NCBI GenBank assembly: GCA_035571835.1
Contig: DATNBU010000037.1
Coordinates: 140,753 to 204,752 of the forward strand
Source of the DNA: Candidatus Limnocylindrales bacterium
GTDB taxonomy: Bacteria; Desulfobacterota; Binatia; UBA1149; CAITLU01
Length of the DNA: 64,000 nucleotides
Direction: 5' to 3'
Shown here: positions 8,429 through 63,121 of the stretch, piece by piece
Layout: each line of letters opens with the position of its first letter
How positions within the stretch are numbered: position 1 is the first letter of the stretch
Notes under the pieces: generated by a model
The model's input: only the letters and a program-made list of their open reading frames with translations
Database searches by the model: none
What the model was told of the DNA's origin: nothing
Program-made: the position numbers and the translations under genes

Positions 8429-8540
8429 AAATCGGGGACAGACACCGATTACGCGAAATCGGGGACAGACACCGATTAACCGAAATCAGTGTCTGTCCCC
8501 GAATAGTGGAAATCAGTGTCTGTCCCCGATTAACCCCGAT
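8429..8540. repeat. Four copies of a ~25-bp palindromic unit AAATCGGGGACAGACACCGATTA (two direct, then two inverted), followed by GGGACAG hairpins through ~8634
   Basis: Direct reading: aaatcggggacagacaccgattacgcgaaatcggggacagacaccgattaaccgaaatcagtgtctgtccccgaatagtggaaatcagtgtctgtccccgattaa. Each unit has an AATCGG/CCGATT stem. The same unit recurs at 63030..63108. Confidence 0.8.
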
Positions 8541-8639
8541 TAAATAAAAACGGGACAGATCCGGTTTTGGTTTCCGGAGCTGTCCCGTTCTTTGTCGCGG
8601 GTCGGTGCGCGGTGAGTCCGGGGCTGTCCCGGGTTTCGA

Positions 8640-11435: not shown

Positions 11436-12992
11436 ATGCGCATCCGCTGGTCGGAATTCGAAAACATCTTCCGTGAATTCACGGAGCCTGCCGGCGGCGC
11501 GCTGTCGTTCTATCTCGAGGACGAGTCCGGCAACGTCGTGGCCGGGTCGGTATCGGATGACAGGCCGGCGGTCGCGCGACACCGGCTGACGATTGCCGAG
11601 CAGCACATCGCACGCCTCAACGCGTGCGGGAACGCCTCTCCGGAAACGGTGCGGCTTTGCTGGGCCGCGTGCGAGCGCGAGCTCGCGCATCAGCTGACGA
11701 TCGGCGACATGGCGGACGCGACCGCGCGCCTGTGGCGTCAGACCAACGCACTGCTTCGCATGAGCGAAAGCACCAACCTTGCGCTCGAGCCGGGCCCGAT
11801 GCTGAGCCGTGTGCTCGGCGTGCTTGCGCACGCGACCAATCTCGAGCGCGGCTGCGCGCTGGTGCGCGTTGCGGGCGCCACCGATTACACGCTGTTCGGG
11901 TTCGAGCACCCGCGCCAGGTTCCGGCGAGCGCGATCAAGACGCTCGAAAAGCTCGAAGACGATGTGACAATGCTTCCCGGCGAAGGCGATACGCGCGAAG
12001 TCCAGAAGGAGTGCGCGTCGCTTCTCGGCCGCCGCTCGCAGCTCATCGTCGTCCGCATCGCGACCGACAACGCGCGCTACGGATACCTGCTGGTTCCGTT
12101 CTCGGTGACGACGACGGTCAGCTCCGAGGACTTGAAGGTGCTCGGCGCCGCGACGCGCATCGTCGGAATCGCCGTCGAGAATTCGCATACACTGCTTCGC
12201 GAGCGCGAATCGATGCGTCTCGAAGTCGAAAACGAGATGCTCAGCAACCAGGCGCGCGAGATGGAAGAGATGCTTCACGTGGTCTCGCACGACCTGCGTT
12301 CGCCGATGACCGCGATCTACGGATTCATGCACATCGCGCTCGACGAGCTCGACGACCTGCGCACGTCGCTCGAGGATCTGCCCGATCACGAGGTTGCCAC
12401 TCAGGGCACGCGCATCGCCAAGCCGCTCGAAGACGGCATTCGCAGCGTCGAGCGCCTGAACGGAATGGTGCAAAGGCTCCTCGACTTCTCGCGCATCGCG
12501 CGACTCGAGTATCATTTCGAGCCGCTCGAGATGTCGCGGCTCGTCGGCGACGTGGTCGATTCGCTCGGCTTCCATATGCGCGAGAAGGGCATCAAGGTTT
12601 CGGTCGGACCCTTGCCGAACACCGACGGCGACCGTGTCCAGGTCGAAGTGGTGTTTCGAAACCTCGTCGACAACGCCGTCAAGTACATGGGCGACGGCAA
12701 GCCGCGCGAAATCGAGATCGGCAGCCGCGATGAGGCCGGCGAGACCGTCTATTTCGTGCGCGACACAGGCATGGGCATGACCGCAGAGCAGTGCGGAAAG
12801 GCGTTCCTGCCGTTCCGGCGTTTTCGTGCGGACGCGGCTCCCGGCGAAGGCATCGGCCTGTCGTTCGTGCGCAAGATCGTCGAGCGTCATGGCGGCCGCA
12901 TCTGGTGCGAATCGACCGAAGGCGTCGGGACGTCGTTTCAGTTTACGCTCAAGGCCGGAAGGGTCGGACGGGATATCGCTCTGAGCGCGTAG
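11436..12992 (+). CDS. Sensor histidine kinase (GAF-like N-terminus, HisKA, HATPase_c)
   Basis: H-box VVSHDLRSPMTAIYGF; N/G boxes FRNLVDNAVKY, DTGMGMT, GEGIGLSFV. Confidence 0.85.
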   Translation: MRIRWSEFENIFREFTEPAGGALSFYLEDESGNVVAGSVSDDRPAVARHRLTIAEQHIARLNACGNASPETVRLCWAACERELAHQLTIGDMADATARLWRQTNALLRMSESTNLALEPGPMLSRVLGVLAHATNLERGCALVRVAGATDYTLFGFEHPRQVPASAIKTLEKLEDDVTMLPGEGDTREVQKECASLLGRRSQLIVVRIATDNARYGYLLVPFSVTTTVSSEDLKVLGAATRIVGIAVENSHTLLRERESMRLEVENEMLSNQAREMEEMLHVVSHDLRSPMTAIYGFMHIALDELDDLRTSLEDLPDHEVATQGTRIAKPLEDGIRSVERLNGMVQRLLDFSRIARLEYHFEPLEMSRLVGDVVDSLGFHMREKGIKVSVGPLPNTDGDRVQVEVVFRNLVDNAVKYMGDGKPREIEIGSRDEAGETVYFVRDTGMGMTAEQCGKAFLPFRRFRADAAPGEGIGLSFVRKIVERHGGRIWCESTEGVGTSFQFTLKAGRVGRDIALSA

Positions 12993-13053
12993 CTTCGCGA
13001 TTTGCTTGTCGGCGCGGTTCGGGTCGAATGCGGCGGCCGCATCGCGTCGCGCG

Positions 13054-13162
13054 CTGGTTCAGGAGCGCGCGGTTTTCAGAGACGCGCTCATTTCAGAAGC
13101 GTGCCGTGTTTTCAGGAGCACGTCCGATTTTCCGGTGCCGGTTTTCAGGAGATAGAAAAGTG
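13054..13162 (+). repeat. Tandem array of about six ~18-19 bp repeats with core TTTCAG(G/A)AG, immediately upstream of the hemQ-like gene
   Basis: ggttcaggagcgcgcg / gttttcagagacgcgctca / tttcagaagcgtgccgtg / ttttcaggagcacgtccga / ttttccggtgccg / gttttcaggagatagaaaaGTG. The last copy supplies the SD for the GTG start. Confidence 0.7.
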
Positions 13163-13993
13163 CCCGAGTTCGTCGCCGTCGAAGCCCCTCAAACTATCGA
13201 AGGCTGGTACACGCTTCACGACGTCTACACGGTCGACTGGTCACTGTGGCATGCGCTCGATGATCTGGAGCGCGAGCACGTCGGCAGCGAGCTTTCGAGC
13301 TGGCTCGAGGGTCTCGCGGCCTATCCGGAACGCGGCGATTCGAAGCTCTACAGCGTCGTCACGCAGAAAGGCGACCTCATGTTCTGCCACTACCGGAGCA
13401 GCCCGGCTGCGCTCAACGAGATCGAGCTCCAGCTTCGCAAGCTACGCATCTATGAGTTTCTTGCTCCGGCGTACTCGTACCTGTCGGTGATCGAGGTGAG
13501 CCTGTACGAAGTGCAGGCGATGGCGATGCGCCGCCTTTCCGATCGCGGCATTGCGCCGGGGACTCCCGAGCACGACGAAGCCCTGGCCAAGGAAATGGAA
13601 GTGCAGAAGGAGCGCATGAACGAGCGCCTATTCCGCAGGATCCCGCCGCAGCGCTACATCTGCTTCTATCCGATGAACAAGCGTCGCGGCGAGCAGGTCA
13701 ACTGGTATGCGCTGCCGCTCAAGGATCGCCGCGCGATCATGCGCGGTCACGGATCGATCGGCCACAAGTACGCCGACGTCGTCACGCAGGTGATCGGCGG
13801 ATCGACCGGTCTCGACGACTGGGAATGGGGCGTGAGCCTGCACGCCGAGGACCCGCTGTCGTTCAAGAAGCTCATCTACGAAATGCGCTTCGACCCCGCG
13901 AGCTCATGGTTCGCCGAGTTCGGCCCGTTCTATGTCGGCGTTCACATCGCCCCGACCGCCGTCGCCGCCCTGATGGAAGGAAGGCTTGAGTAA
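13160..13993 (+). CDS. Chlorite dismutase / HemQ (coproheme decarboxylase)-family protein
   Basis: GTG start with AGGAG SD; 277 aa; the overall architecture and length fit the Cld/HemQ family (WYTLHDVYTVDW..., C-terminal GPFYVGVHI). Confidence 0.75.
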   Translation: MPEFVAVEAPQTIEGWYTLHDVYTVDWSLWHALDDLEREHVGSELSSWLEGLAAYPERGDSKLYSVVTQKGDLMFCHYRSSPAALNEIELQLRKLRIYEFLAPAYSYLSVIEVSLYEVQAMAMRRLSDRGIAPGTPEHDEALAKEMEVQKERMNERLFRRIPPQRYICFYPMNKRRGEQVNWYALPLKDRRAIMRGHGSIGHKYADVVTQVIGGSTGLDDWEWGVSLHAEDPLSFKKLIYEMRFDPASSWFAEFGPFYVGVHIAPTAVAALMEGRLE

Positions 13994-14913: not shown

Positions 14914-15070
14914 GCGCGGGTCCTCCGGCATCGGCTCAAAGCCGAAGGCCGTCGGCGAGTAAAATCGGCGGCGAAATGCGTGCTGCGGCGCGCTTCCTGC
15001 GCGTCGCCTGCCGGCGAGTGGACATCGGGCGACGAAGTGGCTAGCAGAAGGGCCTTCCACTGCTCGTTCG

Positions 15071-15146
15071 GTCGCATAGCTCAGCTGGTTAGAGCGCTCG
15101 CCTCACATGCGAGAGGTCCCTGGTTCGAATCCAGGTGCGACCACCA
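15071..15146 (+). tRNA. tRNA-Val (anticodon CAC)
   Basis: GGTCGCATAGCTCAGCTGGTTAGAGCGCTCGCCTCACATGCGAGAGGTCCCTGGTTCGAATCCAGGTGCGACCACCA; acceptor GGTCGCA/TGCGACC; anticodon loop CUCACAU; CCA encoded. Confidence 0.9.
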
Positions 15147-15214
15147 TCTTTGATTCCCTGCACGTCCCGCGAAGTCCGAAACACGAATTGTCAAGGGCGA
15201 ATGGCAGATGCCCC

Positions 15215-15349
15215 GCGGCTCGGATGAAGATGCGGGTGAAGCACATTGTTCCGCTGTCAGAGCAGGCGGTCGCCATTCTCGGGGAACTCGCAGTCAGCGC
15301 GGCGTACAACTTCGCCGAGCATCTGCCGGAGCGGCGCAGAATGATGTAA
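15215..15349 (+). pseudogene. Remnant of a P4-type tyrosine integrase (internal ~45-aa fragment only)
   Basis: ARMKMRVKHIVPLSEQAVAILGEL resembles the conserved P4-integrase segment ERMKMRRPHIVPLSxQAL; no N-terminal or catalytic RHRY region is present. Confidence 0.5.
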
Positions 15350-15612
15350 GCGTGGGCGAGCTACCTGAATGGCCTGAAGGCTGGGGCGGTGGTAGTGCCG
15401 CTGTTTCGCAGCGCCTAGAACCGGAACCAAATATCGATCGCTACTTGCGACGAGGGGGCCGTTCCTCCGATGGCGCAGTCCGTGGTTCGGTATGGCCGAC
15501 CGAAGCGCCGCCAACGCAATTGGCGGAAGATGAGGTCGACGATCGTCGTTTCCACTCCGGCCATGCAGACACACGTTGGGCGGTCTTTTCTATTCCGGTC
15601 CAAAACGACTTG

Positions 15613-17151
15613 CTATGGTTCTGCTTCGACATCCGCCTCGTCCTCCTCCAACTTCTGTCGCAACTCATCTAACGCCGCAACCGCCAGCAGTTCTCGTACG
15701 GGGTAAGCGATGGGTAACATTGGGGTCCGCGGGTGGCTGGCCTCACCTGTCGGAAGCTCAACGCGATTCCCCTCCTCGTCCTTTCGGGACAAAACCACCC
15801 CGTCTGACCTCACCATGCTAAACAGGTCGCCATACCGACGAGGTGCAACGCCGAGGAAGGGTCCCAGCACCATGCGGGCCGCTTGAGCATCCACCGCTGA
15901 ATCCTCTCCCGCATGATGGATCGCATCTCCGTGGAGAGGTAGAGCCTCACTTTTCGGATATGGCTCGATATAGACGATTCGCTTCACTCCCGCCGCAACC
16001 GCGTGCCGAGCGCAGTTGTGACACGGGAAGGTGGTCGTGTAGAGGACCGCGTTTCGGACACTCACGCCAACACGCGCCGCCGACAAGAGTGCCTCCATCT
16101 CCGCATGAACGGTTCGTCCATACTCGGTGATGTCCCGTAGCTTTGATTCGGAAAGCACGCGTGTCGCTTTCTCGACATCATCCACCAAGCCCTGTTCCCT
16201 AAGGGCCTCGGCAGCCCTCGCCGCGATTACTCGGAGACGTGCGGTGTTCGAGTCGAACCCAATGGCGAGGTCTCGCATGTCGGGATTGTCCTCAGCGCTA
16301 TACAGCCCGCCGCCGGGACGTGGGACTTCATTGTGCCCAACGCCGATCAGGTCCCCGGTTTCAGCGATGAGAGCAGCTCCGATCTGTCGTGCGAGCGCGC
16401 CCGAACGAATCGATGCTCCGAACGCTGCGTGCATCCCAAATTCGTCGAGCGTGGGGGTGTGGAAAGGGTTGCCGAATACCAAGTCGAGAAAGCGATGGAG
16501 GGCCGCCTGTGTGGACTCGTAGCTGGAAACATCGATGAAGACATCTGAAAGATGGAATGTATCTCGGGTCTGTTGCCCGAACTTTTTGTCCTCCTCTTCG
16601 TCCTCATCACGTCTCAAAAGCTTCTCCGCCTGCTCTTCGGAGAGACCTTGCGAGACTTGGAGATGGCGCTTGCGCAAGTTGCGTGGGGCGAAAGCGCCGA
16701 TCAGATAGAACCCGGGTCCGTAGATTTGACGTAGGGTCCGGACTTCCTCCGGGCGTTTCAGCGAATCAAGAACGTGAACGTGCCGGGGCAGAGTCGGATC
16801 CGGGTCTTCGATGTCCTCCGTCGCCTGTGCGCGGCGCTCTGAGATGTTGAACACGGCTGACAGCACGAGCGCATTGCAGTAACCGGACCGTCGCCGGAGT
16901 TCGTTTCCGGCGGTCATATATGAGTTGACGCGATTGAAGTAGGGGTCGCCTTCGATCGGCACGCCGAGAATCTCGGCGAAATTCGGAAGGTCGTCGCTCA
17001 GTTTTACAGTGTTGACCTCGTACCGCCGAACGGCGAACAGGTCGCGTAGAACCGACGTGACGAAATCGCGGTTGCAGCCAATTGGTGCGACCAGTCCAAT
17101 GATGAGTTCGGAGTTGGCGGTCGCAAAGAGTGAAACCTCAGATGTCCCCAC
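15613..17151 (-). CDS. AvcD/DCD-like anti-phage deoxycytidylate (dCTP/dCMP) deaminase candidate: C-terminal CMP/dCMP-type zinc deaminase domain after a ~300-aa N-terminal domain
   Basis: HAEMEAL...PCHNCARHAVAAGVKRIVYIEPYP is the H[AC]E...PCxxC zinc-binding signature of dCMP/cytidine deaminases. The 512-aa architecture matches described defensive deaminases. Located in the tRNA island. Confidence 0.7.
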   Translation of the reverse strand: MGTSEVSLFATANSELIIGLVAPIGCNRDFVTSVLRDLFAVRRYEVNTVKLSDDLPNFAEILGVPIEGDPYFNRVNSYMTAGNELRRRSGYCNALVLSAVFNISERRAQATEDIEDPDPTLPRHVHVLDSLKRPEEVRTLRQIYGPGFYLIGAFAPRNLRKRHLQVSQGLSEEQAEKLLRRDEDEEEDKKFGQQTRDTFHLSDVFIDVSSYESTQAALHRFLDLVFGNPFHTPTLDEFGMHAAFGASIRSGALARQIGAALIAETGDLIGVGHNEVPRPGGGLYSAEDNPDMRDLAIGFDSNTARLRVIAARAAEALREQGLVDDVEKATRVLSESKLRDITEYGRTVHAEMEALLSAARVGVSVRNAVLYTTTFPCHNCARHAVAAGVKRIVYIEPYPKSEALPLHGDAIHHAGEDSAVDAQAARMVLGPFLGVAPRRYGDLFSMVRSDGVVLSRKDEEGNRVELPTGEASHPRTPMLPIAYPVRELLAVAALDELRQKLEEDEADVEAEP

Positions 17152-17615
17152 GCGCCTCAGACTATAGAGGTTTGACGGCTTCCTGGCAGCTGAGCTGTGC
17201 GTTTCTCACTGAAGTCGCCGTCCGGACCCTTGCAGCGACGATTTGGCTGGGCTGCTTCTCGTGAGGCGAACAGTAACTTGGCTCACTTCGGGAGGACTGC
17301 CCATGCCACGCTCTTCGACAGCGGAAGCGACACAGCAACAATTCCTTTCAGCAATGGGCGAAGAATGGGCAACGCGGGCAGTCACGACGGCGGAGAAGCC
17401 AGCGTCGCGGATGTGCGTGTCGCCTACGACCTGCTCGAACACATCTTGTCCGAAGTATACGAAGGCAAGGGAAAGTCGCTGAAGGTACTCGCGAAAAAGG
17501 TAAACAAGAAGAAGGGGCCGGTAACATAGATGCGCTTGCCTGCTCTCCATATGGCGATCTCGCTAGGCGTGCGTGATCTTAGTCGCTCAATGGAACCAAC
17601 CCACGGACGCCACCA

Positions 17616-18500
17616 ATGAAATACGACAGATTCAATCGGTTCGAAGGGACGAGCTGGGCATTTTGGCAGTTCAATGAGTACGAAACTCAGATCAACAGCG
17701 CGTACTGGTCTGGGGTCGCGGCAGTTTCTCGCGCCAGCTACGAGATTCGGCGTAGTGCACCGCCCGTCAATGCAAGGGTGGTAATGCATGCCACGGGAAC
17801 GGACGCGCAGCGAATCTCGGCTGAGGGTCCCGCTTTTGTTGCGAATCTCGGCGAATTTCTTAAGTGGAACAGAGCCAGCTTCATTTTGGCAGCAACCGGA
17901 GCCTTTGAAACGTACATCTGGCGAGTCGTGTTAACTGCGTTGATGTCGGATCCTGCCGCGTTGCATGGCAAGTCTCGAGCAATCGATGGAGCGACTTGGC
18001 TGAAGTTGGGACTTCGACCGGACTACAGTGACATCAAGAAGCGGGTTACGAAGGATACGTGGTTCCAGCGCTATGCGGCTGTTCGGAATATCTTTGGTGA
18101 AATTCCAGCGCTGAGTAGTCGTGTTCCAGAATTAGATCAGATCAGAATTTTTCGTAACAACGCTGGGCACGCATTTGGGAGGGATTTGACGGTAGAACCA
18201 AATCTCACGGCGCGAACGACGGAACGCATGCGAACTATTGACGACACAAAGTTTAAGGAGTGGCTAGGTGTAATCTCGAAATCCGCAAAGGCCATCGATT
18301 CAGTGCTTGTCAAGAACCATATCGGTGATTTCGAGCCTATGATTCACTTTCACAACTACTATGAATCTCTTGGTACTGTGAAGCCGGGGATTAGCAGCGC
18401 ATTTGCCTCACAGTACAAGTTGGCCTTGGCAAAAACCGAAGGTCACTCTAAGGGCAACGAATATGCCCTGACACTGATTCGCGCTTACCTGAACGCGTAG
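17616..18500 (+). CDS. Hypothetical protein with an HEPN-like Rx4H motif (Abi_2/AbiD/AbiF-like)
   Basis: 294 aa, low GC; ELDQIRIFRNNAGHAFGRDL fits the HEPN R-x4-H motif (Abi_2 consensus lRNxxAH). Confidence 0.45.
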   Translation: MKYDRFNRFEGTSWAFWQFNEYETQINSAYWSGVAAVSRASYEIRRSAPPVNARVVMHATGTDAQRISAEGPAFVANLGEFLKWNRASFILAATGAFETYIWRVVLTALMSDPAALHGKSRAIDGATWLKLGLRPDYSDIKKRVTKDTWFQRYAAVRNIFGEIPALSSRVPELDQIRIFRNNAGHAFGRDLTVEPNLTARTTERMRTIDDTKFKEWLGVISKSAKAIDSVLVKNHIGDFEPMIHFHNYYESLGTVKPGISSAFASQYKLALAKTEGHSKGNEYALTLIRAYLNA

Positions 18501-44671: not shown

Positions 44672-45178
44672 TCAGCTCGCGCAGCTGCCCTGCGAAAGAC
44701 CGTCCGGCACGCAGCAGCCCGCGGATGTGCCCGTATCGATGTCGTTCGCAGCTGCGGCGCTGCTGGTCTGCCCGAGGAACGAACGCAGGGAAATGTCTGC
44801 GGCCGTCTCGGCATCGCTGTCTTCGATCAATGCGTACATCTCCCACGGAATGCCGTCGGCGTCGCGAATCCAGAACTTGTCGGCTTTGGCATAGCAGCAC
44901 GTGGTCGCGGTCTGCTGAAGAAGGGGAATCTCGGCCTGCTTGACGCGCACCATCTCGGTCGCGACCTGGCCGGTGTCACTGTAGCGGATGCCGAGGTGGC
45001 TCAGCTTGCCGGGCTCGCCTCCGATGTTGAGCGAGAAGATGACCGGCGGGTCGGACAGCTCGAACTTCGCATAGTCGTGGCGAACCTTGGCCGGTTCGAT
45101 GCCGAGAAGCTTGCGGTACTGCTCGACGGCCTGGGGGATATCCTGGACGTAGACGGCGACATGGAAGGTATTGGACAT
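44672..45178 (-). CDS. VOC/glyoxalase-family protein with a vicinal Cys pair (ArsI-like candidate C-As lyase)
   Basis: Glyoxalase-like fold; TATTCCYAKADKFWIRDADGIPWEMYAL; AGGAGG 8 nt before the internal ATG; adjacent to arsR-aqp. Confidence 0.55.
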   Translation of the reverse strand: MSNTFHVAVYVQDIPQAVEQYRKLLGIEPAKVRHDYAKFELSDPPVIFSLNIGGEPGKLSHLGIRYSDTGQVATEMVRVKQAEIPLLQQTATTCCYAKADKFWIRDADGIPWEMYALIEDSDAETAADISLRSFLGQTSSAAAANDIDTGTSAGCCVPDGLSQGSCAS

Positions 45179-45260
45179 GGTGGTTTCCTCCTGGGGATAT
45201 TGCTGGGGGATATTGACGTTCGTCGATATTGCATCGGACATCGAAGTCTGTCAATATCCT

Positions 45261-54980: not shown

Positions 54981-55732
54981 GAATCAGCCTTCGGTTTGCG
55001 CGCCGTGAAGAGCCCGCCCTGCGTCGACGGTGAAGTTCGATAGCCCGTCCAGCCGTGAAACGTGGCTTCGCAGAATCCGGCGTCGCTGAGCATTTTCAGG
55101 AGCGACCGCTCCCAGATTGCGCCTGCAATTCAAGCGGACCAGGCGCCTTTCTGCGAGACCTCTTCTGGAGTGACACCGTCTTCGAGCAGCATGTCGGCCA
55201 TCTGGATGCGGCCGCCGGGGCGCAGCACGCGGAACGCTTCGGCGAGCACTTTCGGCTTGTCGAGACAGAGGTTGAAGACGCCGTTGGAAACCACCACGTC
55301 GACGGATGCGTCGTCGAGCGAAAGGTCGTCGATCTCACCGATGCGGAACTCGACGTTCGCGGAGCCGGCCGCGCGCGCGTTGCGCCGGGCCTTCTCGACC
55401 ATCTCCACTCCGAAATCGATGCCGATCACGCGGCCTTCCGGCGCGACGCGGCGCGCGGCAAGGATGCTGTCGAGTCCGGCGCCCGAGCCGAGATCGAGAA
55501 CGATCTCTCCGTTTCTCAGCGGCTGGAGGGCGATTGGGTTTCCTACGCCGGCGAAGGACTCGACGACGGACCGCGGCAGGGCGTCGATCCCCGTGGCATC
55601 GTAGCCGAGCCGCTTCGCACTCTCCGCGCCGACGAGGAACGACTCTTCGCGTTCGGGCGACAGCGCGACCATTGCGAAGCGCTCGCGGATTTCCGCTTTC
55701 AGCCGCGAAGAGTCTTCTCTTTCGTCGTCCAC
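54977..55732 (-). CDS. ArsM-like arsenite S-adenosylmethyltransferase with an in-frame TGA (candidate selenocysteine) at the conserved GC(I/V)AGA cysteine. The listed ORF 55130..55732 is its N-terminal part
   Basis: VLDLGSGAGLD motif I; VDVVVSNGVFNLCLDKPKVLAEAFRVLRPGGR; then ...QKGAWSA-TGA-IAGAIWERSLLKMLSDAGFCEATFHGWTGY continues in the same frame for 50 codons to a TGA that overlaps the next gene's GTG. Confidence 0.5.
55100..55117 (-). other. Candidate bacterial SECIS-like hairpin downstream of the in-frame UGA
   Basis: mRNA UGA-auugcaggcgcaaucu-GGGAGC-GGUC-GCUCCU; 6-7 bp stem with a GGUC apical loop; GU lies 24-25 nt after UGA. Confidence 0.35.
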
Positions 55733-55733
55733 G

Positions 55734-56267
55734 ATGTGTTCATTACGCCGGGACCAGGCTCAAGACGAGCCGGCTTACAGACGATCATCGGAGTCTGCCC
55801 CCACGCGTGGAACAGTCGAGATTTCACGCAAGTCATTGACCGGCAGGCCGCGTTGTTGGACCCTTGCCGCCGTGGCCGTGGCCGTGGCCGTGGCCGTGGC
55901 CGTGGCCGTGGCTCTCGATACACTTGCGTACGCGCGGCGGCTCCGCGAGGCTGGTTTCAGCGAGCAGCAGGCCGAAGGTCAGGCCCAGGCGCTCGCCGCT
56001 GCCATGACCGATACCCTTGCGACCAAGCAGGATCTTCGCGAACTCGACGTACGCTTCGACGCACGGTTTACGGGAATCGAGACTCGTTTCGATGAGCAGG
56101 AAAAGCGGATGGCTATTCGGTTCGACGAGCACGAAAAACGGATCGAGATGCGTTTCGCGGAGCAGTCAGCACGCTTCGATGCCCGCCTTGCCGATCTCGA
56201 ACGTCGCATCACGCTTCGAATGCTGGCCGGAATTGGCGCGGTCTCGGCGCTGGTCAAACTTCTCTGA
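55734..56267 (+). CDS. DUF1640-family coiled-coil protein with a C-terminal TM helix; N-terminal (Ala-Val)7 encoded by a hexanucleotide repeat
   Basis: LDTLAYARRLREAGFSEQQAEGQAQALAAAMTDTLATKQDLRELDVRFDARF matches the DUF1640 pattern. The real start is probably one of the in-frame GTGs within 55869..55910, not the listed upstream start. Confidence 0.55.
   Translation: MCSLRRDQAQDEPAYRRSSESAPTRGTVEISRKSLTGRPRCWTLAAVAVAVAVAVAVAVALDTLAYARRLREAGFSEQQAEGQAQALAAAMTDTLATKQDLRELDVRFDARFTGIETRFDEQEKRMAIRFDEHEKRIEMRFAEQSARFDARLADLERRITLRMLAGIGAVSALVKLL
55869..55910 (+). repeat. Microsatellite (GCCGTG)x7
   Basis: gccgtggccgtggccgtggccgtggccgtggccgtggccgtg. In frame it encodes (AV)7; on the opposite strand it gives (HG)n. 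Confidence 0.9.
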
Positions 56268-62931: not shown

Positions 62932-63029
62932 GATCGAGCTGTTCTCCCGCAAATGAAGTGGTTCGGACCGCCCGTGTGTAGCCCGGAGGGCCGTCCGGCG
63001 GAAATCCAAACGATCGTTTGTCTCGCCGG

Positions 63030-63108
63030 AAATCGGGGACAGACACCGATTTCCCGAAACCCGGGACAGACACCGATTTCCCGAATTCGGGGTCTGACCC
63101 CGATTTCC
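63030..63108. repeat. Three direct copies of a ~27-bp unit A(A/T)(A/T)(T/C)CGGGGACAGACACCGATTTCCCG, the same unit as at 8429..8540
   Basis: aaatcggggacagacaccgatttcccgaaacccgggacagacaccgatttcccgaattcggggtctgaccccgatttcc. Confidence 0.8.
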
Positions 63109-63121
63109 TCAAAACCGCGAG

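Follow-up and report, generated by a model that had tools for sequence, protein, structure and literature searches.

Shine-Dalgarno-like repeats in the hemQ leader of a Binatia-like bacterium probably derive from tandem amplification of the ribosome-binding segment

A Shine-Dalgarno (SD)-like sequence lying far from the start codon is exemplified by the STAB-SD of Bacillus thuringiensis cry3Aa (Agaisse & Lereclus 1996, cited in PMC12970973); this is a single 16S-pairing element in the leader of a Firmicute gene, with a shown effect on half-life. Iterons and the operators of response regulators are short direct repeats in front of a gene, and intergenic minisatellite-like tandem duplications form head-to-tail arrays of same-strand units. 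The leaders regulated by CsrA/RsmA, among them those of pgaA and glgC, carry several GGA sites. CsrA recognizes such GGA motifs in leaders (PMC4894983).

The leader of hemQ described here, which lies in a 64-kb stretch of DNA analyzed as a whole (hereafter the window), shares features with all of these systems. Like the STAB-SD of cry3Aa, its units R1 and R4 (Table 1) are SD-like leader sequences far from the start that could pair with 16S rRNA; however, the hemQ array has two intact and three decayed upstream copies, belongs to an uncultured Binatia-like bacterium and is not conserved. As in CsrA/RsmA-regulated leaders, there are several GGA motifs, one of them over the SD and one in a hairpin loop, but the array keeps only three GGA motifs, is not conserved, and would owe the likeness to duplication of an SD rather than to convergence. 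With iterons and response-regulator operators it has in common short direct repeats in front of a gene, whereas it is irregular and off phase, sits downstream of a promoter-like block, and is accompanied neither by a nearby cognate regulator nor by conservation among orthologues. The resemblance to minisatellite-like duplications extends to the head-to-tail arrangement on one strand, the period of 14-19 nt, the divergence of copies by point mutation, a length difference from the nearest relative that is a whole number of units, and an independent 23-nt duplication in the same spacer of the related locus L165. The difference is that the duplicated unit of hemQ happens to include the SD, which makes the array look like a series of ribosome-binding sites. 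We propose that the segment bearing the hemQ ribosome-binding site was probably amplified in tandem in this lineage, and that the array is now in decay rather than being a regulatory device.

The two genes that flank the array, those of the kinase and of hemQ, stand between a NUDIX gene and an enoyl-CoA hydratase gene, an order common to the loci L161-L166. No response-regulator gene stands beside the kinase, whose surroundings consist of the NUDIX protein and, past hemQ, the enoyl-CoA hydratase. The protein identical to HemQ is named "hydrogen peroxide-dependent heme synthase" at NCBI, where it is assigned to Candidatus Limnocylindrales. The best genome match of HemQ is a Candidatus Binatia MAG (80%), and the protein puts the window in a Binatia-like lineage. 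The gap of 167 nt that the original prediction gave for the kinase-hemQ interval was confirmed, the sequence reading as quoted. Further downstream lies a tRNA-Val gene (15070-15146). After it come a short ORF that resembles an integrase remnant (15107-15349) and, on the minus strand, a gene for a 512-aa protein with deaminase domains (15613-17151; dCMP_cyt_deam_1, MafB19-deam), and AT-richer DNA is visible near 17950-18300. In L163, an intact phage-type integrase gene lies just past the enoyl-CoA hydratase gene, at the position of the tRNA-Val segment in the window. The region 15070-18300 of the window is probably a genomic island at tRNA-Val.

Table 1. Features of the kinase-hemQ interval; energies are those of the duplex with the anti-SD sequence.
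Feature	Coordinates	Strand	Sequence	Remarks
Histidine kinase gene (518 aa), orphan	11436..12992	+		Pfam HisKA 5.5e-10, HATPase_c 1.6e-23
Kinase-hemQ spacer	between kinase stop (ends 12992) and hemQ GTG (13160)	+		167 nt
Non-repeat conserved block, putative promoter	12996..13046	+		2 differences/54 nt vs L163
R1	13056-13072	+	GGTTCAGGAGCGCGCGG	CAGGAG intact; -6.6 kcal/mol; missing in L163
R2	13073-13090	+	TTTTCAGAGACGCGCTCA	SD decayed (CAGAGA); -2.9 kcal/mol, at background; missing in L163
R3	13091-13108	+	TTTCAGAAGCGTGCCGTG	SD decayed (CAGAAG); -1.1 kcal/mol; missing in L163
R4	13109-13127	+	TTTTCAGGAGCACGTCCGA	CAGGAG intact; -6.6 kcal/mol; missing in L163
R5	13128-13141	+	TTTTCCGGTGCCGG	truncated, SD decayed; -3.0 kcal/mol; missing in L163
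R6	13142-13159	+	TTTTCAGGAGATAGAAAA	hemQ ribosome-binding site; -7.4 kcal/mol; GTG directly 3'
hemQ / chdC, coproheme decarboxylase, chlorite-dismutase family, 277 aa, GTG start	13160..13993	+		Pfam Chlor_dismutase 7.8e-57

Analysis of the spacer revealed six head-to-tail units on the same strand at 13056-13159, each of 14-19 nt and organized around a TTTTCAG core. From core to core the spacings are 17, 17, 19, 19 and 14 nt; the six units of the original prediction are thus present, but the period is irregular and not a constant ~18 bp. Its description of the gap as almost entirely repetitive holds in part: the array occupies only 104 of the 167 nt, and the first ~54 nt at the 5' end form a separate, non-repeat block. 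Pairwise identity among the units is only 50-70%, and because the copies have diverged to this degree the array is not detected by Tandem Repeats Finder run on the spacer; a repeat-family search of the spacer does recover the array families. The copies are also too diverged for further slippage, so the array is not a phase-variable tract.

The clustering of the units is not due to chance. TTTCAG occurs 18 times on the plus strand of the window, with four of these occurrences lying within 70 nt at the array, and three of the five matches to TTTCAGRRG in the window fall in the array. When all hexamers were scanned with weighting for rarity, an equally extreme cluster was obtained in none of 100 dinucleotide shuffles; without the weighting the test does not discriminate, since GC-rich hexamers are common and form clusters in 110 of 200 shuffles. 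A degenerate tandem array in the hemQ leader, as originally claimed, is therefore real. No further copies of it were found in the 64-kb window or in the fetched loci. A lone TTTCAGGAG at 55094 is isolated and has no start codon after it in the stretch read. Among other repeats of the window, a perfect GCCGTG hexamer repeat of 7.3 copies lies at 55869-55912, and a cluster of CTGGGGATATTG-type repeats at 45131-45226 is among the most extreme rare-hexamer clusters. A CRISPR was considered and dropped, the repeat period being too short.

Comparison with relatives confined the array to a single genome. L161 and L162, other assemblies of the same protein and genome, have a spacer identical to that of the window, which rules out an assembly artefact; the samples are possibly not independent, and the three copies of the array may have been drawn from a single population. 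The nearest relative, L163 (GCA_034680565.1), has the same gene order, a HemQ 96% identical and a kinase 99% identical, and differs from the window at 17-21% of four-fold sites. Its spacer measures 80 nt against 167 nt and contains the same conserved block followed by one unit only, GTTTCCAGGAGAACAAGAA, directly in front of GTG. Alignment of the window with L163 leaves a single 87-nt gap that matches R1-R5, and the core spacings sum to 86. A single unit, GTTTTTCAGGAGTAGATGAA, is also present in L165 (HemQ 83%). R6 is 75-76% identical to the single copies of L163 and L165 and is orthologous to both. The spacers of L164 and P0005 (HemQ 86%) are 40 and 39 nt long and have no array, that of L166 (HemQ 84%) is 0 nt, and L081, L082, L001, L168, L169 and L170 (HemQ 80-83%) possess other spacer sequences in which no array was found, its absence from the upstream regions of L168-L170 being read by eye. 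When the 220 nt in front of hemQ were scanned by pattern in 167 loci, L161 and L162 had more than one unit and none of the remaining 165 did. The kinase-hemQ pair, by contrast, is kept in relatives without the repeats. The original prediction had named the absence of the array from orthologous loci as one half of what would refute it, and these loci turn out to be without the array even at 96% identity in HemQ and 99% in the kinase. Judged by the loci compared, the array is private to this genome.

Other changes were observed in the same spacer. In L165, a separate tandem duplication of 23 nt (2.7 copies, 92% matches) covers the kinase stop codon at L165:2401-2461, so that the spacer is duplication-prone in another lineage too, and the spacers of L168 and L169 carry REP-like insertions. 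The dispersed REP-like palindrome GAAATCGGGGACAGACACCGATT forms tandem and inverted intergenic clusters with a 27-nt period, and gave nine matches at ≤3 mismatches against 0.59 expected. Its sites lie at 8429-8543, 63029-63117 and 55787-55802 (minus strand) of the window, at L168:1200-1460 and at L169:220-370. GGGACAG units related to GAAATCGGGGACAGACACCGATT fill the kinase-hemQ spacer of relatives.

The non-repeat block at the 5' end of the spacer is clearly constrained when set against L163, since its divergence (Table 1) is far below the 17-21% at four-fold sites (P=0.0014). Both differences are transitions, and the predicted base pairs are kept as G.U wobbles. In addition, TCGGGTCGAAT from the block recurs in L081, L001 and L170, located 26-43 nt from the start codon. 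The block contains a -35-like TTGCTT (13002-13007) and a -10-like TCGAAT (13024-13029) separated by a 16-nt spacer, and is also predicted to form an imperfect hairpin. It may be a promoter, perhaps a non-canonical one of the form TTGCTT-16-TCGAAT, or else an RNA hairpin; as a sigma-70 scan does not call the block, the promoter is one that we infer from these elements. Transcription would start in the block or read through from the kinase gene, and the array would therefore be transcribed within the hemQ leader either way. The sigma-70 scan of the array itself found nothing, and a sigma-54 promoter was dropped for want of a GG-N10-GC match.

The position of the block also bears on a reading at the DNA level, in which the TTTTCAG direct repeats would be an iteron-like operator bound by the partner of the kinase or by another transcription factor. 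A rare heptamer that is directly repeated five to six times beside a histidine kinase gene would suit such an operator. However, the repeats are situated downstream of the promoter-like block and not over it, and their spacings correspond to 1.62, 1.62, 1.81, 1.81 and 1.33 helical turns, off the phase of ~10.5 or 21 bp, so that successive sites would fall on different faces of the helix. There is no response-regulator gene adjoining the kinase, relatives without the repeats still have the kinase paired with hemQ, and the array motif is not a marker of other intergenic regions in the 64-kb window. An operator is therefore very unlikely, and with off-phase spacing, no flanking response regulator and orthologues devoid of the array, the iteron-like regulator sites that were first suggested find no support.

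Duplex energies, computed against an assumed canonical 16S tail, divide the units into two sets. The background mean is -2.8 kcal/mol, and R2, R3 and R5 lie at about this value; by anti-SD pairing only R1, R4 and R6 are SD-like. Of the six SD-like repeats first described, three are thus retained and the other three are at background. Set against random 18-mers, even -6.6 kcal/mol falls only at the 5th percentile, the window being GC-rich. The GGAG of R6 ends 8 nt 5' of the hemQ GTG, and the position of the hemQ start (V/M-P-E-F...) is conserved among orthologues, which bears out the assignment of the last copy as the ribosome-binding site of the GTG start. When the leader is folded from the putative start site, R6 has the highest predicted accessibility of the six units (0.79); in the fold of a kinase read-through transcript its accessibility is 0.58, second to that of R1 (0.67). 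The mean unpaired probability of R4 is only 0.43-0.45. No ATG, GTG or TTG is found 5-10 nt after R1 or R4, the only in-frame candidate being an ATT located 8 nt after R4.

Readings that involve translation of the spacer were dropped. Upstream ORFs were rejected, as the upstream SDs are not followed by start codons, and so was a coding spacer, as the units are in different codon phases and all orthologues start with V/M-P-E-F. In the frame of hemQ no stop codon interrupts the spacer, and the open frame reaches back into the 3' part of the kinase gene (12791-13993, a mechanical ORF of 400 aa); the last triplet of R3 is an in-frame GTG (13106). Because the orthologues start at V/M-P-E-F, we argue that this long open frame would be an accident of high GC content and not an N-terminal extension.

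The pairing retained by R1 and R4 brings up the possibility that the leader docks 30S subunits. These units would load ribosomes or keep them on stand-by, would reduce initiation at R6 by acting as decoys, or would form a 5' stabilizer of the STAB-SD type that protects the mRNA against 5'-end-dependent decay. Their pairing energy is near that of the true ribosome-binding site (-6.6 versus -7.4 kcal/mol), no ATG, GTG or TTG follows them at initiation distance, and R1 sits in a hairpin loop ~20 nt from the predicted 5' end, where a STAB-SD would act. The cry3Aa leader (Agaisse & Lereclus 1996, via PMC12970973) gives a precedent of SD-like stabilizers far from the start codon. By contrast, the array is missing in the relative with 96% identity and in all other orthologues, three of the five upstream units have no SD, and the retention of the SD in the others is close to the neutral expectation. 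Energies such as those of R1 and R4 also lie only at the 5th percentile of random 18-mers, as noted above, and the 5' end of the leader is itself a predicted one. We regard docking of this kind as unlikely. The ribosome stand-by or stacking device of the original prediction likewise gained no support from an array that is absent in relatives, has no SD in half of its units and has a substitution pattern compatible with neutral decay.

A young functional device acting in cis is decidedly unlikely in our estimate. In it, a series of U-rich and SD-like modules, two of which could still bind the 16S tail, would recruit, hold or redirect 30S subunits, or else protect the 5' end in the manner of STAB-SD. 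If it were true, such a device would retune HemQ output in one lineage, as a regulatory novelty born from duplication of a ribosome-binding site. All readings of the array as a functional device, when combined, hold a real but clearly minor share of the probability.

The CAGGAG of R1 is located in the loop of an 8-bp GC hairpin with arms at 13048-13055 and 13064-13071. This feature invites comparison with CsrA/RsmA-type regulation, in which the array would be a platform for a protein that represses hemQ translation via the GGA motifs of R1, R4 and R6. The three CAGGAG motifs are 53 and 33 nt apart, and the last of them is the SD; CsrA is a known binder of GGA motifs in leaders (PMC4894983). 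On the other hand, the motif is simply the SD of hemQ, R2, R3 and R5 have lost GGA, relatives do not share the array, it has no RNA family match, and no csrA was detected in the 64-kb window by tblastn with the E. coli and B. subtilis CsrA sequences as queries. We consider a CsrA platform highly improbable.

The same hairpin is one of two mutually exclusive structures (13048-13071 and 13062-13089) that might form an attenuator or terminator, in which GC hairpins and short U-runs would modulate read-through from the kinase gene or from a leader promoter. The 8-bp perfect GC stem is followed by GUUUUC, and the alternative 7-bp stem by AUUUC. These U-runs are only 3-4 nt long, whereas a terminator needs a U-tract of at least 5, and scanning for terminators returned no site within the array. 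The predicted fold of the leader is not more stable than those of shuffles (z = 0.25) and gives no special structure. An Rfam search at a permissive E-value returned nothing in 12993-13160, neither a leader nor a riboswitch, and one chance-level match (E = 2.8) inside the kinase gene. Together with the absence of the array in relatives, these results make an attenuator extremely improbable.

The comparison with L163 suggests how a decaying amplification could have arisen. We propose that the amplified unit had ~18 nt, composed of a T-run, then CAGGAG and then a GC-rich tail. The tails of R1-R4 (CGCGCGG, CGCGCTCA, CGTGCCGTG and CACGTCCGA) resemble CGCGCCCGCCA, which precedes the single unit of L163, so that the duplicated unit would span the SD plus its upstream flank. 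Slipped-strand or unequal-exchange duplication would have inserted five extra units (86-87 nt) between the promoter-like block and the start codon, so that the hemQ leader would have grown from ~35 nt to ~120 nt, and the copies would afterwards have drifted by point mutation. R6 alone would now work as the ribosome-binding site and the five upstream units would be relics, three of which have lost complementarity to the 16S tail, while R1 and R4 could still pair without a usable start. The upstream units might transiently dock 30S subunits, and nothing indicates selection for such docking. The array, its absence from relatives, the 87-nt indel, the anti-SD energies and the neutral-like substitution pattern are observed, while we infer the mechanism of duplication, the transcription start and the lack of function. 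Any effect of the array would be at most mild, exerted in cis on the hemQ mRNA through an action of R1 and R4 on its translation or stability.

The substitution pattern among the units is compatible with neutral-like decay. R1-R5 carry 16 substitutions, spread as uniform decay predicts; when these are placed at random, 37% of trials yield a 7-column block conserved to the degree of TTTTCAG. GGAG is kept in two of the five upstream units, against 2.15 expected. The TTTTCAG core has 3 substitutions in 34 positions versus 13 in 50 elsewhere (one-sided p = 0.043), a nominal value that carries a bias, as the core served to anchor the alignment of the units. The sample behind all of these comparisons is small, and its alignment has the same anchor.

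The units differ from their consensus by about 19% (95% CI 11-31%), and four-fold sites have diverged by about 9-10% per lineage since the split from L163. The divergence of the units is above that of the lineage, so the array may predate the split. An origin at about the time of the split and an older array later deleted in L163 would both fit these values. R1 and R6 share TTCAGGAG, and recombination between them through this sequence may have produced a deletion in L163. An older array would have persisted for some time, which would leave room for weak selection.

As a private decaying duplication, the row of SD-like motifs should not be annotated as a regulatory element, and the main value of the finding is in this sense negative: what catches the eye as a series of ribosome-binding sites is probably a decaying tandem duplication in one lineage. 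The kinase-hemQ spacer of this Binatia-like clade appears as a hotspot of structural change, in which tandem duplications and REP-like insertions occur. The locus would also be a clean natural example of how a 5' leader becomes longer, and acquires spare 30S-binding motifs, when a ribosome-binding segment is duplicated; such motifs may serve as raw material for the evolution of stand-by sites, decoys or STAB-SD-type stabilizers.
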